NCBI GenBank assembly: GCA_964387625.1
Contig: CAYLWN010000002.1
Span: forward strand, 39,120 to 78,423
Reading direction: 5' to 3'
DNA from: an uncultured Gammaproteobacteria bacterium
GTDB lineage: Bacteria; Patescibacteriota; Microgenomatia; UBA10105
DNA: 39,304 bases
How positions within the stretch are numbered: the first letter of the stretch is position 1; each line of letters begins with the position of its first letter. Below, one piece after another: positions 10,549 to 39,097 of the stretch. Under the pieces are notes generated by a model. The model searched no databases. It was given only the letters and a program-made list of their open reading frames with translations, and was not told the origin of the DNA. A program made the position numbers and the translations under genes.

Positions 10549-11460
10549 TTAAGATAGCAGAGATTTAAGCATTTGAAAATTTCCTACATGATCTGAAACA
10601 GGTTCAACTAAAGCATAAATATCGTTTTTTTTATAAAGAGACAACAGTTTAATCATTTCGCTTTTGTTAGGAATTGCGAGGTCTGATGTAAATTCATCAA
10701 ACAATAAAGATCCATGATAATCGGTCCCGTTATATGGTGGAATAATATAACTTACATGTAAAAGTTTTGTTTTTGTGAGCAATTTTTTTGACACAGACCA
10801 TAAATTTTCTAACAATTGAGATCGGGCTAGATTTTCTTGATTTGCCAGTGTATGTCCAAAATCATTCGCAAAATATACATTATCTATATTTAACACAGTT
10901 TTAATTATATCTATTGGTAGATCGCCAAAATCTACATAGACATTTCTATCCAGCTGACCCAGACTGTTTACCGAATAAGAATATTTAGGCACACTTTCAA
11001 TTATCAATTTTATGCCTAAATTATCTGCATAATTTGCAAGTTTATGTACTGAATTATAAAAAGTTTCTTGCAAAAGTTGTAGAGATATTTGCTTGCCAAA
11101 GGGTTTAAAATCAATGACATCGCGTTCAAAATTCACATTAGACAATACGCTGCTGCCGGGATGCATATTTACATATAGACAATTATGTTTTGAGGCCACA
11201 TTAATGGTTTGTTTAACTAATTCAATAGATTCACTTAAATTTTGCTTGTTGGGATAAGCTAAATTAACTAATGTATTATTTGAAGTATTACCCCAGAAAT
11301 GCAATCCCGCACCAATTTTCAGTTGTTTAATTTGAGAAAATAGATTGTTGTAATCAGCTATTTTGTTTACATGAAACCAGACTTCACAAAAGTCAGGAGC
11401 AGCTGAAATTAAATCCTGGTAAGAATTGTTTTTTAGTCCGACTTTGATACCTAATTTCAT
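10549..11460 (-). CDS. TIM-barrel protein, xylose isomerase-like/AP endonuclease 2 family
   Basis: Metal-ligand pattern GLH, NMHPG, LIIES, DFGH, LHV, DYH and VEP. Confidence 0.75.
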   Translation of the reverse strand: MKLGIKVGLKNNSYQDLISAAPDFCEVWFHVNKIADYNNLFSQIKQLKIGAGLHFWGNTSNNTLVNLAYPNKQNLSESIELVKQTINVASKHNCLYVNMHPGSSVLSNVNFERDVIDFKPFGKQISLQLLQETFYNSVHKLANYADNLGIKLIIESVPKYSYSVNSLGQLDRNVYVDFGDLPIDIIKTVLNIDNVYFANDFGHTLANQENLARSQLLENLWSVSKKLLTKTKLLHVSYIIPPYNGTDYHGSLLFDEFTSDLAIPNKSEMIKLLSLYKKNDIYALVEPVSDHVGNFQMLKSLLS

Positions 11461-11605: not shown

Positions 11606-12613
11606 ATGACAAATTTATTTACTTATATTGATGATTTTTTGGAATTTTTAGAAGTTGAAAAAAATGTATCTCCATTAACCATCCGAAACTACAAACATTA
11701 TTTGATGAGATTTGCCAACTGGTATAAAGAATCCTCTCCCCTGCCTGCGCCTGACTGCCTGCCTACGCAGTCAGGCGTAGGCAGGCAGTCAGGCCTTTCA
11801 GGTGTCTCTCAAATAAATTCTGACACGATCAGACATTACAGATTATATTTAACCAGGTTAACAGATACACATAATTTGACTCTTAAAAGAGTGACCCAGA
11901 ATTATCATTTGATTGCACTGCGGGCTTTTTTACGGTTTTTAGTCAAGAAAGATATTAAAACTTTGGCTCCCGAAAAAATTGATCTAGGCAAGACAGAATC
12001 GCATAGTTTGAAATTTTTAAATAAAGATCAATTAACACGTTTGGTTAATCAACCGGATATAGCTACTGTTTTCGGCTTGAGGGATAAAGCGATACTGGAA
12101 TTATTATTTTCTACAGGTTTACGGGTATCAGAACTGGTGAAACTAAACCGTGATCAAATAGATTTTACGACACGGGAAATCGGTATTATCGGTAAAGGTG
12201 GTAGAGCCAGGGTGGTATTTATTTCAGACGCCGCATCAAAGTGGTTGCAACGATATTTAAGTTATAGAGAAGATAAATACAAACCTTTATTTGTCCGTTA
12301 TTCAGGAAAAAAAGTTACCAAAGATCAAGGCGAAGAAGGAATCAGGTTATCAGCCAGAAGTATTCAAAGATCTGTTGAAAAATATGTAAAAAAAGCTAAA
12401 TTGCCTATCAAAATTACTCCTCATGGGTTACGGCATACATTTGCCACGGATTTGTTGACAGCAGGAGCTGATATCAGGGCCATACAAGAAATGTTGGGAC
12501 ATAAAAATATTTCCACTACTCAAATATATACACACGTTACCAATCCGCAACTTAAACAAATCCATAAAAAATTCCATGGAAAAACTGAAATAGTTGAAGA
12601 TGCAATTAAATAG
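11606..12613 (+). CDS. XerC/XerD-like tyrosine recombinase with an 18-codon palindromic insertion
   Basis: SAM-like N-domain. Catalytic motifs TGLRVSEL, GKGGRAR, TPHGLRHTFAT and LGHKNISTTQIYTH. Confidence 0.95.
   Translation: MTNLFTYIDDFLEFLEVEKNVSPLTIRNYKHYLMRFANWYKESSPLPAPDCLPTQSGVGRQSGLSGVSQINSDTIRHYRLYLTRLTDTHNLTLKRVTQNYHLIALRAFLRFLVKKDIKTLAPEKIDLGKTESHSLKFLNKDQLTRLVNQPDIATVFGLRDKAILELLFSTGLRVSELVKLNRDQIDFTTREIGIIGKGGRARVVFISDAASKWLQRYLSYREDKYKPLFVRYSGKKVTKDQGEEGIRLSARSIQRSVEKYVKKAKLPIKITPHGLRHTFATDLLTAGADIRAIQEMLGHKNISTTQIYTHVTNPQLKQIHKKFHGKTEIVEDAIK
11740..11793. repeat. 54-bp compound CCTG...CAGG palindrome in frame in xer
   Basis: Perfect 20-bp IR 11749-11768/11775-11794, with an alternative 19-bp IR 11740-11758/11767-11785 (1 mismatch). 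Confidence 0.9.
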
Positions 12614-12617
12614 ATAG

Positions 12618-13367
12618 ACAGGTCGGACCTGTTATGGAGATGGATGTGATGATATAAATTAAATTTTTATCGTATATGCCGGCAAAAAATTCTATAAAAC
12701 AATACGTTGAAAATAGCTTCTATCATATTTACAATCGGGGCGTTGATAAACGAATAATTTTTATTCAGGATTTAGATTATCAAATGTTTCTTTCATATTT
12801 AAAAAATTACTTGTCAACATTGTCTTTACAACAGGTCCGGCCTGTAAGAAAATCCACTCTTTTTTTAGAAATTGATTTAATCGCTTATTGTCTGATGCCA
12901 AATCATTTTCATTTATTGATTAAACAAAAATCAGCCAAATCAATAATTAAATTTATGCGTTGTTTAACAAATGCATACACGCGATATTTTAATACCAGAC
13001 ATAAAAGAATTGGTCATTTATTTCAAGGAAAATATAAAGCAAGTTTAATAACAGAAGATTTATATTTACTACAACTATCTCGTTATATACATAGAAATCC
13101 ATTAGAGTTATTCAGGTCAGACCTGCATAAAATATTGTCAGAATACCCTTATTCAAGTTATAAAGATTTTTTAGGATTAAGAAACACTGTTTGGGTGAAG
13201 CCAAATGAAGTATTAAATTTTTTTGCATTAGATAAGCAAAAAAATAATTTAGATTTAAATTATCAAGGTTTTGTTGAACAATTTAATAAAGACGAAAATG
13301 ATATAAACGAATTTATCTTAGAAGACAATGTCGAATGATAACAATCTAAACAACAGGTCCGATCTGT
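12618..13367 (+). mobile_element. RAYT module: Y1 transposase bracketed by inverted 15-bp palindromes, with two more copies inside the gene
   Basis: ACAGGTCGGACCTGT (12618-12632), ACAGGTCCGGCCTGT (12831-12845), CAGGTCAGACCTG (13113-13125) and ACAGGTCCGATCTGT (13353-13367). Confidence 0.8.
12676..13338 (+). CDS. REP-associated tyrosine (Y1/HUH) transposase, IS200/IS605 TnpA superfamily
   Basis: YHIYNRG, AYCLMPNHFHLL (HUH), YFN...GHLFQGKY, YIHRNP (catalytic Tyr) and YPYSSY. Confidence 0.92.
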   Translation: MPAKNSIKQYVENSFYHIYNRGVDKRIIFIQDLDYQMFLSYLKNYLSTLSLQQVRPVRKSTLFLEIDLIAYCLMPNHFHLLIKQKSAKSIIKFMRCLTNAYTRYFNTRHKRIGHLFQGKYKASLITEDLYLLQLSRYIHRNPLELFRSDLHKILSEYPYSSYKDFLGLRNTVWVKPNEVLNFFALDKQKNNLDLNYQGFVEQFNKDENDINEFILEDNVE

Positions 13368-13407
13368 TTAGTTTTGTTTAGACAATTTATGATAAAATGT
13401 TGATCTT

Positions 13408-24009: not shown

Positions 24010-24131
24010 ATTTAAAATTTAAAAATCCCTGCTTGCGCAGGCAAGAAAATGTAAAATTGCAGTTTAAAATTCAAAATTAACAATTTTTATTTTTGCATTG
24101 AAATTTTGACTTTTGCATTTTGCGTTTTTAA
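24010..24131. repeat. Inverted 7-bp arrays containing an 18-bp CCTG-family palindrome
   Basis: (tttaaaa)-type units, then complementary (ttttgca)-type units. cctgcttgc-gcaggcaag lies at 24028-24045. Confidence 0.75.
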
Positions 24132-35795: not shown

Positions 35796-35960
35796 AAGAA
35801 ATTGAAAATATTTTTACATTATAAGTCTTTATTTGTTATATCACAATAAGATTTAAATAATGTTCACGTCCATCTGTTCATCCCCCGGGTGTGCTAACTT
35901 GACACTTCCCGATTTGGATTATTTACGGTTTTTTTATGTAATTTATGATAATCTAAAATT

Positions 35961-36857
35961 ATGATCATTTTTATTATCGGATTTATTTTTATAATTGGAC
36001 TGTTTATCGGTTCATTTTTAAATGTGTTGATTGATAGACTGCCTCTTGAAAAAAATCCCTGGAAAGGCAGAAGTAAATGCGATTTTTGCAATCATTCGCT
36101 ATCTCCTCTTGATTTGATACCAATATTTTCATTTATAATACTTGGCGGTAAATGCAAGTATTGTCATAAAAAGTTATCATTCCAATACCCATTAATTGAA
36201 ATATTAACAGGGATTATGTATGTGAGTATTTTTGTTAATATTTCAAAATTATCAAACGTTCTAAATCCCTTCGACTTTGCTCAGGGAATAAAACTAACTG
36301 TCTTAAGTCTTCCTGTTTTATTGTCATATTTGTCTTTATTAGTCATTTTCTCTTCCTTTCTCGTTATCTTTGTTGCAGATGTCAAATATCAAATCATTCC
36401 TGATGAAATGCTGGTGAGTTTGGGAGTTGGAGTATTGTTGATGCTGGTAAGCAAGATTCCCGCTTTCGCGGGAATGACAATTAGGGGGGAAGATTCTTCG
36501 TTGGCATTCAGAATGACAACGGGGATGTTTAGAATAGCGATCCCCTATTTATTATCAGGTTTAACAACCGGTTTATTTTTCCTAACTATTTATTTAGTCA
36601 CAAAACGTAAAGGTATGGGGTTTGGAGACGTAAAATTAGCTCCACTTTTAGGATTATTTTTAGGATTTCCAAAAATAATTGTTAGTCTTTATATAGCTTT
36701 CTTGACAGGTGCAATTTTTTCAATCATACTGATTATATTAGGCAAAAAAGAGTGGAAAAGTAAAATTGCCTTTGGACCATTTTTGATAATCGGAGCGAGT
36801 TTAAGTTATTTTATCGGCGATTTAATCACAAAATGGTATATGAATTTTTTTCTATGA
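35961..36857 (+). CDS. pilD: Prepilin peptidase with REP-derived in-frame insertions
   Basis: GSFLNVLIDRLP, RSKCDFC, GKCKYC, YPLIE, D..YQIIPD, GMGFGDVKL and IAFGPF. Confidence 0.95.
   Translation: MIIFIIGFIFIIGLFIGSFLNVLIDRLPLEKNPWKGRSKCDFCNHSLSPLDLIPIFSFIILGGKCKYCHKKLSFQYPLIEILTGIMYVSIFVNISKLSNVLNPFDFAQGIKLTVLSLPVLLSYLSLLVIFSSFLVIFVADVKYQIIPDEMLVSLGVGVLLMLVSKIPAFAGMTIRGEDSSLAFRMTTGMFRIAIPYLLSGLTTGLFFLTIYLVTKRKGMGFGDVKLAPLLGLFLGFPKIIVSLYIAFLTGAIFSIILIILGKKEWKSKIAFGPFLIIGASLSYFIGDLITKWYMNFFL
36267..36290. repeat. CTGAGC/GTCGAAG-family REP (reverse) inside pilD
   Basis: cccttcgactttgctcagggaata, encoding PFDFAQGI. Confidence 0.7.
36454..36518. repeat. Two tandem GTCAT-family REP halves inside pilD
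   Basis: agattcccgctttcgcgggaatgaca (36454-36479) and agattcttcgttggcattcagaatgaca (36491-36518). Confidence 0.85.
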
Positions 36858-38395: not shown

Positions 38396-38458
38396 GTCAT
38401 TCCCGACCTGATCGGGAATCTTATTAATTTTTAAGATCCCCGCATTCGCGAGGATGAC
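38396..38458. repeat. Intergenic REPIN-like doublet (GTCAT family)
   Basis: gtcattcccgacctgatcgggaatct (38396-38421), a 12-nt AT spacer, then agatccccgcattcgcgaggatgac (38434-38458). Confidence 0.88.
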
Positions 38459-38485
38459 AATTATTAGTTTAGTTTTGTAATTGAT

Positions 38486-39097
38486 ATGAAGATGCTAAGA
38501 TTTATGAGAAATTCAATAATCCAGAATCCCTGCCTCGCCGGCAGGCAGGCAGAATCCACCCGCCTGCCATCGCTATGCTCAAGCATTAGCGGGCAGGGAA
38601 TCACTAGAGTTGGTTTTACCTTGGTTGAGACTTTGGTTACACTTGTTTTAATAGGAACAATTGGTTTAATTGCTTCAATTTCTTTGTTTAATTTGTTATC
38701 AGGAAGTGCAAAAACCGAAATTGTTAAAGAAATCAAACAAAATGGAGACTACGCCTTATCAACAATGGAGCAAAATATTAGAAATGCAACTGATGTGTAT
38801 TATTTAGTAGGAGGTGTAAAAACATGTGCAGGTACATCTATCGACCTTTACATTATTCAACCTTCACAACCTGCAACACCGATTCATTATTCCTGTTCTT
38901 CTGGAAGTTTATATGTTGATGGAAATAGTTTGACTAGTGATAAAGTTGTCGTTAATCCCTGCACAGGAGTTTTTACCTGCAATAAGGATGTTAATGGTTT
39001 ATATAAAAATGTAATTATTAATTTTGTTTTGGAAGACGCACAAAACTCATCTGTCAGTCAGACATATAAAACAGAAATCAGGTTGCGAAATAAGTAA
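38486..39097 (+). CDS. Minor pilin (PilW/PulJ-like) with a leader lengthened by two palindromic insertions
   Basis: VG|FTLVETLVTLVLIG, IRNA and C-terminal LRN. The start could be ATG 38504. Confidence 0.88.
   Translation: MKMLRFMRNSIIQNPCLAGRQAESTRLPSLCSSISGQGITRVGFTLVETLVTLVLIGTIGLIASISLFNLLSGSAKTEIVKEIKQNGDYALSTMEQNIRNATDVYYLVGGVKTCAGTSIDLYIIQPSQPATPIHYSCSSGSLYVDGNSLTSDKVVVNPCTGVFTCNKDVNGLYKNVIINFVLEDAQNSSVSQTYKTEIRLRNK
38529..38597. repeat. Two CC(T/C)G...CAGG elements (21 bp and 39 bp) within a (CCAGAAT)3 array
   Basis: cctgcct-cgccggc-aggcagg (38529-38549) and cccgcctgc-N21-gcgggcagg (38559-38597). Confidence 0.92.

Follow-up and report, generated by a model that had tools for sequence, protein, structure and literature searches.

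Why should a transposase gene contain, inside its own reading frame, the short palindrome that also stands at both of its ends? The question is raised by a stretch of 39,304 nt (here called the window) of contig CAYLWN010000002.1 from assembly GCA_964387625.1 (Patescibacteriota; Microgenomatia; UBA10105), which comprises 1.24 Mb in 86 contigs, with 33% G+C and a completeness of 89.9%. In the window, a gene for a 220-aa Y1/HUH enzyme, resembling the tyrosine transposases associated with repetitive extragenic palindromic (REP) sequences (RAYTs), is accompanied by four copies of the palindrome ACAGGTCnGACCTGT, two outside the gene and two translated within it. The locus is probably a REPtron-like unit, namely a gene for a Y1 single-stranded DNA endonuclease/transferase together with a 15-nt hairpin that it recognises. 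The main interest lies in the two in-gene slots, conserved and concerted with the flanks, and in a hint that the copies overwrite existing sequence.

The palindrome was searched with the pattern ACAGGTCNGACCTGT, allowing at most 2 mismatches, and 100 shuffles of the window served as the control; the shuffled windows held 0.03 matches on average, and four matches were reached in none of them. The two flanking and two translated copies had been described in a first-pass annotation of the window, and all four were confirmed. The spacings given there agree with the coordinates (the upstream palindrome starts 4 nt past the stop of the xer-like open reading frame (ORF) at 12613, and the downstream one begins 14 nt past the stop of the transposase ORF at 13338), and the outer palindromes are, as it had judged from the central base, mutually inverted, with G at the centre upstream and C downstream. 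The annotation was also correct in noticing no further palindrome in the window; elsewhere in the genome, searched with the same tolerance, five additional exact 15-mers are present, two in tandem (C3:1789 and C3:1809) and the others at C12:8329, C37:7767 and C39:2529. The genome-wide counts that it had proposed, of the motif and of RAYT paralogues, came to 9 copies, 4 of them translated, and 3 Y1 genes.

Both outer palindromes are surrounded by a weak inverted repeat of 36 nt (75% complementary). The folding of the four local copies as single-stranded DNA is only modest, with -4.6, -4.0, -4.2 and -2.7 kcal/mol. All six reading frames through the palindrome are free of stops, and the internal copies at the two sites use two different ones.

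The product of the gene matches Pfam Y1_Tnp (E 1.9e-12), the sole Pfam domain found, and shows the motifs NHFH (H77 and H79), LFQG, YIHRNP (with the catalytic Y137) and YPYSSY in the tail. The HUH histidines, Y137 and N141 do not vary across an alignment of 48 homologues. The AlphaFold model calculated from this alignment (predicted local distance difference test, pLDDT, of 87.7) has as its best Foldseek match 4er8_A, the E. coli RAYT with its REP hairpin (E 9.9e-8), followed by the transposases of IS608 and ISDra2, and a sequence search of solved structures returned nothing significant (best E 0.26). The identification of the ORF as a RAYT-like Y1/HUH enzyme, made already in the first-pass annotation, is supported by the Pfam match, by the HUH and Y motifs and by the top fold match. 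In the model, a low-confidence loop joining the helix 32-46 to the strand 66-73 contains site 1 (residues 52-57), and site 2 (residues 146-151) directly follows the tyrosine helix, 4 residues past the NP of the Y motif. A small helical tail at residues 162-201 could be a divergent helix-turn-helix (HTH).

The three Y1 genes of the genome are 35-44% identical to one another; in respect to the window gene, the identity is 44% for the C64 paralogue and 35% for the C38 paralogue. The C64 paralogue stands between AGGGTCgGACCCT upstream and AGGGTCcGACCCT downstream, again with the G/C flip of the centre. Its hairpin is AGGGTCCGACCCT, while that of the window transposase is ACAGGTCCGACCTGT, and the exact copies in the genome number 16 for the C64-type palindrome and 7 for the window palindrome CAGGTCnGACCTG. 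The two hairpin-type families have the core GGTCnGACC in common, which occurs 29 times in the genome (2.8 expected), and differ in the outer bases (CA..TG vs AG..CT). A 40-nt inverted repeat, of which the genome has six copies, stands on both sides of the C38 paralogue. Judged from the sequences, the pairing of each enzyme with a repeat of its own is well supported, and the three enzymes with their three families are the strongest local evidence for it.

Two observations concern the dispersed members of these families. A solo copy of the C38-type 40-nt inverted repeat (..CATCCCCCGGGTGTGCTAACTTGACACTTCCCGA) is found in the window at 35877-35911. Copies of the AGGGTCnGACCCT family have a conserved one-sided extension of ~75 nt (AAAAA..TTTGCGGGAAAA..TTAG..TTGTGACAATCCGTTCAAAACAG), present at C17:8957, C20:6670, C20:10002, C21:12339, C48:846, C33:8767, C5:34595, C24:6149, C7:9491, C7:10389 and C64:2540. 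At the C64 gene this extension is the stretch from the upstream hairpin to the ATG, which makes the dispersed copies resemble solo left ends of the C64 unit.

Homologues of the window gene are present in 65 of the order's 87 genomes, none of them more than 56% identical to it and with as many as 17 matches in a single genome (G049); in a sample of 401 genomes from the phylum, 123 have them. Of 79 loci examined 76 were kept (L023 was dropped for an early stop, L056 for a contig end and L084 for its 342-aa ORF). A perfect GC-rich hairpin is found at most 160 nt from the ORF at 55 of the 76 loci, and at least one lies within the ORF at 43; the internal hairpin equals the flanking one (at most 2 mismatches) at 24 loci, and two like internal hairpins are present at 10. 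The centres of the internal hairpins fall in 48 of 61 cases at nt 150-209 or 420-539, which are, by the protein alignment, the same two loops as in the window gene. Among the first 31 loci, the core of the own flanking hairpin recurs in the ORF at 12 of the 22 loci having one, compared with 25 of 660 in a cross-locus control, all 25 being related palindromes at the same offsets. The hairpins are lineage-specific (for example TGACAGGGCCTGGCCCTGTCA, CGAGGAGAGTCCTCG, AGCTTCGCAAGGCCAGGCCTTGCGAAGCT and CCTGCAGGGCCAGGCCCTGCAGG). The closest homologue found (L089, 56% identical, from another family of the phylum) carries ACAGGTTCGACCTGT both at nt 155, as in the window gene, and past its stop codon, and shares the site-1 and downstream palindromes with the window gene. 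The same layout in paralogues and in homologue loci bears out the proposal of the first-pass annotation that the palindromes are the cognate repeat of the ORF, inverted at its ends and twice in frame.

Partial matches starting at residues 52-65 had suggested a swapping of N-terminal modules at site 1. This was rejected: in 12 of the 13 partial-match loci fetched the N-terminus is complete (L056 is cut by the contig end), and the partial matches are therefore artefacts of local alignment over the long loop.

The stems are maintained in a concerted manner. In 22 close, non-independent pairs of genes the internal stems are identical at 538 of 594 positions (91%), whereas the rest of the ORF is identical at 10552 of 14598 (72%). 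L044 and L045, with a DNA identity of 78%, have three hairpins of 29-31 nt which are identical save for a flipped centre base at all three. In the related L021, L022, L027 and L030 the inner stems differ between the genes and are uniform at all positions of each gene. Such concerted change requires a process of copying, and point mutations arising in parallel at three or four sites are an improbable cause. A global co-divergence of protein and hairpin was also considered and was rejected in view of the Mantel-type rho given below, the likeness of stems being confined to the 13 pairs under 0.3 protein distance.

The manner in which new copies arise can be approached from the two that lie in unrelated genes. 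The copy at C12:8329 is within a GATase_3 gene (peptide NRSDL) and that at C39:2529 within a Wzy_C-type gene (peptide QVRPV). None of the 11 GATase orthologues has a gap at the position of the palindrome, whose right arm is formed by the conserved (S/C)DL codons and whose left arm replaces variable codons. Among the Wzy_C orthologues the loop is of equal length in 3 of 11 (3 of the 4 from the window's own family) and 2-3 residues shorter in the other eight. In the Y1 homologues, the site-2 loops have on average 17.6 aa with a hairpin and 15.6 without, for a mean hairpin of 21 nt (7 aa), and the site-1 loops with a hairpin are shorter than those without. The free half-site GACCTGT was counted 62 times, with 67.8 expected; thus the half-site alone triggers no copy. 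Since the element is free of stops and codons are replaced at an unchanged length of the protein, the sequences favour a short copying patch that would overwrite the existing sequence over a simple insertion. Insertion followed by adjustment of the loop length is a conceivable alternative. As for the agent, the hairpin may be a sequence written over existing DNA, with its length unchanged, either by the enzyme or by replication on enzyme-bound hairpins, which we put forward as a tentative and somewhat unlikely proposal.

The coordinates of the local features are collected in the table.

Table. Features of the Y1 locus in the window (mismatches are counted against the search pattern).
Feature	Coordinates	Strand	Remarks
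Upstream palindrome ACAGGTCgGACCTGT	12618..12632	.	Exact (0 mismatches), centre G; 43 nt between palindrome end and ATG
Internal copy 1, ACAGGTCCGGCCTGT	12831..12845	+	1 mismatch, centre C; peptide QQVRPV; site 1
Internal copy 2, TCAGGTCAGACCTGC	13112..13126	+	2 mismatches, 6-bp stem kept, outer pair lost; peptide FRSDL; site 2
Downstream palindrome ACAGGTCCGATCTGT	13353..13367	.	Centre C; 1 mismatch, giving a G-T pair
Tail direct repeat, TGTTTAG x2, period 10	13365..13381	+	Begins within the 3' arm of the downstream palindrome
220-aa Y1/HUH gene (RAYT-like, TnpA-Y1 class 2)	12676..13338	+	Pfam, motifs, model, fold search
xer-like tyrosine recombinase gene	11606-12613		ORF immediately upstream of the first palindrome

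The direct repeat in the tail of the downstream palindrome has counterparts elsewhere. At 12 of the 26 GGTC(C/G)GACC copies in the genome, the end of the 3' arm with 6-10 flanking bases is directly repeated, with a period of 9-14 nt in ten cases and as whole-hairpin tandems in two. The repeat lies 3' of the C-centred strand, and on the opposite side in only 2 of the 26 copies; it is also present at L089 and L039. It is not family-wide, being seen in 2 of 32 downstream flanks of other loci. This polar tail repeat may mark the position of the enzyme's cut.

Contigs of four sequencing runs (X3, X5, X7 and X11) contain the locus with a few base differences, and they give no evidence of excision between the hairpins; 'joints' in sequencing-run contigs (sides of 27-34 nt, 90% likeness) most likely derive from other paralogues. 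Among the runs listed as containing the locus none is of RNA. In one contig of X11, a soil-metagenome run, with a depth of ~5, the centre base of internal copy 2 (window 13119) is G instead of A, and this moves the copy nearer to the consensus palindrome.

The fold and motifs of the product, the inverted flanks, the separate repeat family of each paralogue, the recurrent layout, the two slots and the conserved stems together lead to the reading of the locus as REPtron-like. By homology, the enzyme would bind the hairpin extruded on single-stranded DNA, cut near the foot of the hairpin through Tyr137, and then rejoin the ends. Such cutting and rejoining would spread the copies of the palindrome and homogenise them. 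The internal copies would then be further instances of this element, placed in two surface loops that tolerate it and retained, like the outer ones, by gene-conversion-like copying and not by a need of the protein.

Several points weigh against this picture. Binding and cleavage of the hairpin by the enzyme are presumed from homology. The copy number is low, the 9 copies in the genome being far under those of classical REP families, and in the flanks of these copies no GT[AG]G foot is conserved beside the hairpin on either strand. The product scores 46.2 bits with the NCBIfam RAYT equivalog NF047646, under its cut-off of 80. A perfect internal hairpin is lacking at 33 of the 76 loci, and the C64 paralogue, with the bigger repeat family, has no internal copy at all, so that internal copies are unnecessary for spread. 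The density of GC-rich hairpins is 1.17/kb in the ORFs and 0.71/kb in the rest of the same loci, so that the argument depends on where the hairpins lie and how they match, and not on how dense they are. The distance between proteins and that between hairpin stems show no overall correlation (Mantel-type rho 0.03; an equal or higher value came from 616 of 2000 permutations). For the overwriting, the basis is small, comprising two intragenic copies and loop-length averages over related, non-independent loci.

Other explanations have to be compared with the REPtron-like reading. If the internal hairpins were selected cis-regulatory or self-processing sites, which the enzyme or a host factor binds or cuts in the enzyme's own gene or transcript so as to limit its expression, the inner and outer sites would co-vary because one protein reads them all. 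Slots that are fixed phylum-wide and stems that are more conserved than the coding sequence would agree with such a function, as would the orientation in the window locus, L002, L044, L045 and L048, where the upstream copy points the other way from those at site 2 and downstream of the gene (which is not a systematic count). We regard it as rather improbable, given that perfect internal hairpins are lacking in the C64 paralogue and at the 33 loci mentioned above, and that the palindrome also occurs in the GATase_3 and Wzy_C genes, where autoregulation would be pointless. A promoter scan gave 6 sites vs 7.5 expected, none of them in the interval from the upstream hairpin to the ATG. The G-T pairs in two imperfect local copies had prompted the idea of an RNA hairpin on the sense strand, for which the wobble test gave no support (7 G-T vs 17 A-C at the internal sites across loci). 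That the locus is an ordinary autonomous insertion sequence of the IS200/IS605 type, with the palindromes as its subterminal left- and right-end hairpins, is suggested by the Pfam family (IS200-like transposase) and by the family's being multi-copy in many of the order's genomes (at most 17 matches, in G049), but has a low probability. The Y motif is Y-x3-NP (class 2) and not the Y-x3-Q of IS200 (as listed in Table 1 of PMC6006769), and RAYT is the best structural match, before the IS608 and ISDra2 transposases. The outlined IS200/IS605 TnpA (subclass 1.1) has ~150 aa, hairpins in the same orientation and near-identical copies, whereas the window gene codes for 220 aa, its outer hairpins are mutually inverted, solo hairpins are dispersed without a gene, and the paralogues are only 35-44% identical, so that none of the three is a product of recent transposition. 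It is hardly credible that the internal palindromes arose by chance or as a side effect of constraint on the protein, even though the peptide QVRPVRKS is kept between the window gene and L089: with 0.03 matches expected by chance per window, the genome-wide search gave just the four local and five exact copies, the palindrome is read in different frames at the two sites, and homologues have different palindromes at both sites, which match their untranslated flanks.

The arms of the palindrome also recall another set of repeats in the same genome, the CCTG...CAGG elements. Their main family is CCTGCCTGC(N0-4)GCAGGCAGG with variants, the element form being CCTGCCTGCCGGCAGGCAGG; a hairpin census gave 51 CCTG...CAGG hairpins in the genome, ~30 of them of the CCTGCCTGC/GCAGGCAGG type, and 14 exact matches to the pattern. 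The first-pass annotation had suggested, while allowing for coincidence or for other RAYTs, that the enzyme may also serve these elements, ACAGGTCnGACCTGT being their joined-end (circle-junction) form. In favour of a shared enzyme are the four-base resemblance of CAGG and CCTG, the presence of the pattern in 36 of the 65 genomes with a Y1 homologue vs 3 of the 22 without, and a weak correlation (Spearman 0.33) between CCTG and Y1 counts over the 87 genomes, which speaks against keeping the two systems apart. The idea is nevertheless very improbable. Joined CCTG...CAGG ends would give CAGGCCTG, not CAGGTCnGACCTG, and the resemblance rests on a variable position because the outer bases differ between the GGTCnGACC families, the conserved Y1-linked core being GGTCnGACC itself. 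None of the genome's three Y1 genes has such an element in its flanks. The identical CCTGCCTGC(N0-4)GCAGGCAGG sequence is found in 39 of the 87 genomes, in up to 24 copies, whereas the Y1 hairpins differ from genome to genome. The co-occurrence across genomes, which the annotation had named as a check, fails in both directions: the element is absent from 29 of the 65 genomes with a homologue and present in 3 of 22 without, namely G084 (98% complete, with 6 CCTG elements and a single GIY-YIG match), G025 and G041, and G049, G034, G044 and G058 have 10-17 homologues (17 in G049) and no CCTG element. The correlation with Y1 is no stronger than that with the small GIY-YIG genes (0.37), and Y1 and small GIY-YIG gene counts correlate at 0.56; the weak CCTG-Y1 correlation is read as general repeat richness because the GIY-YIG counts correlate with CCTG and Y1 alike. 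The CCTG...CAGG elements are a separate repeat family.

In the window, the sites of CCTGCCTGC(N0-4)GCAGGCAGG are at 38527-38600, 1330-1372 and 24027-24042. The GATase_3 gene that bears the palindrome (L093, C12:8172-9017) contains, around residues 145-180, an additional segment (..PAQAGGNLKDPRVKPACAGKPED..), which is lacking in most orthologues and appears to be an in-frame element of the CCTG...CAGG type. Small GIY-YIG genes number 14 in the genome (E <= 1e-8), and the GC-rich hairpins in their flanks differ from gene to gene. Such genes (Ssn-type) were considered as owners of the CCTGCCTGC elements, which could not be assigned to them, a related sequence being found just upstream in 2 of the 14 only and the correlation being the weak 0.37 given above.

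Among known systems the closest likeness is to the REPtrons, which are outlined in PMC2817692 (Nunvar 2010) and PMC6006769 as RAYT/TnpA-REP genes with flanks of REPs or bacterial interspersed mosaic elements (BIMEs), such as E. coli YafM (PDB 4ER8). With them the window gene shares the Y1/HUH fold with the Y-x3-NP motif, the position between inverted copies of its own hairpin (the C64 paralogue likewise), and the pattern of one repeat family per paralogue with solo copies dispersed and mostly intergenic. Unlike REPtrons, it has a hairpin without the GT[AG]G foot, a family of 9 copies of a minimal 15-nt hairpin of which 4 are translated (REP families usually have >100 copies per genome according to the account in PMC2817692), a product beneath the NCBIfam RAYT equivalog cut-off, and three paralogues in the host genome, with multiple copies in relatives.

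For the internal copies a precedent is found in TnpA-Y1 subclass 2.4, where REPs are described as in-frame insertions within tnpAREP (Quentin et al. 2018, PMC6006769). As far as that description goes, both systems have the cognate repeat inside the transposase gene, with the frame intact, in a region predicted to be peripheral. In subclass 2.4, with the motifs WQ and YIxNNP, the inserts are between HuH and Y; the window gene, in contrast, has NHFH, FQ and YIHRNP, its copies occupy two fixed sites, of which one precedes the HUH strand and the other follows the Y helix, and throughout the phylum the copies in its family vary together with the flanks. By the motifs tabulated in the same source, the window gene fits the second motif set of subclass 2.1/TIRYT (NH[YF]H, FQ, Y[IV]H.NP, SS tail), with R in its YIHRNP where the Y[IV]HLNP of subclass 2.1 has L. 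The C38 paralogue with its 40-nt inverted repeats resembles the TIRtrons. The accounts of subclass 2.1/TIRYT in PMC6006769 and PMC3733652 report no REP-like hairpins, but a C-terminal HTH (Bac_DnaA_C, HTH_23 or HTH_28) and terminal inverted repeats with GGGGWSAS; unlike these, the window gene is flanked by short hairpins. Pfam gives no HTH in it, although the small helical tail could be a divergent form. Intragenic REPs and the Rickettsia palindromic elements are presented as insertions which add residues (De Nocera et al. 2013, PMC3733652). In line with that presentation the window palindrome is translated in frame in unrelated genes; in contrast to it, two copies of the window family replace codons, with the protein length unchanged. 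In the literature searched, no description of the present layout was found for CPR (candidate phyla radiation) bacteria or for 2.1-like enzymes, the sole precedent being the passages on subclass 2.4 in PMC6006769.

The window and genome also contain hairpins that lie outside the Y1 system. The xer-like gene has, at 11749-11794 (within 11733-11795), an in-frame GC-rich hairpin with a 20-bp stem, GCCTGACTGCCTGCCTACGC...GCGTAGGCAGGCAGTCAGGC, located in the N-terminal SAM-like domain and translated within ...LPAPDCLPTQSGVGRQSGLSG...; the N-terminal Pfam match is broken there. Repeats of the GATTCCCGCTTTCGCGGGAATGAC type at 36453-36483 and 38433-38463 of the window resemble hairpins beside GIY-YIG genes (C2:9323, C12:325). 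At C22:12000-12450, a small GIY-YIG gene stands between a duplicated 5' tRNA-like part (CCCCTGTAGCTCAACGGTA) and a full tRNA-like sequence, as if the gene had inserted into a tRNA gene.

To our knowledge, the spread of REP-type repeats has never been directly demonstrated, and we know of no resolution to the question of RAYT copying of REP-type hairpins around genomes. The present family offers natural experiments on this spread, with tiny stop-free hairpins, several enzyme/hairpin pairs in a single genome, two in-gene slots that change with the outer copies and two intragenic copies that replace codons. If the overwriting is true, the in-gene slots would be updated in the same way, and each gene would be a running record of its own substrate; the gene may also use the internal sites for self-limitation, and these minimal 15-nt systems would reveal the way in which REP-type repeats are propagated. 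The enzyme/hairpin pairs are candidate sequence-specific tools for single-stranded DNA. In general, the family shows the persistence of selfish repeats in compact CPR genomes with little intergenic space.

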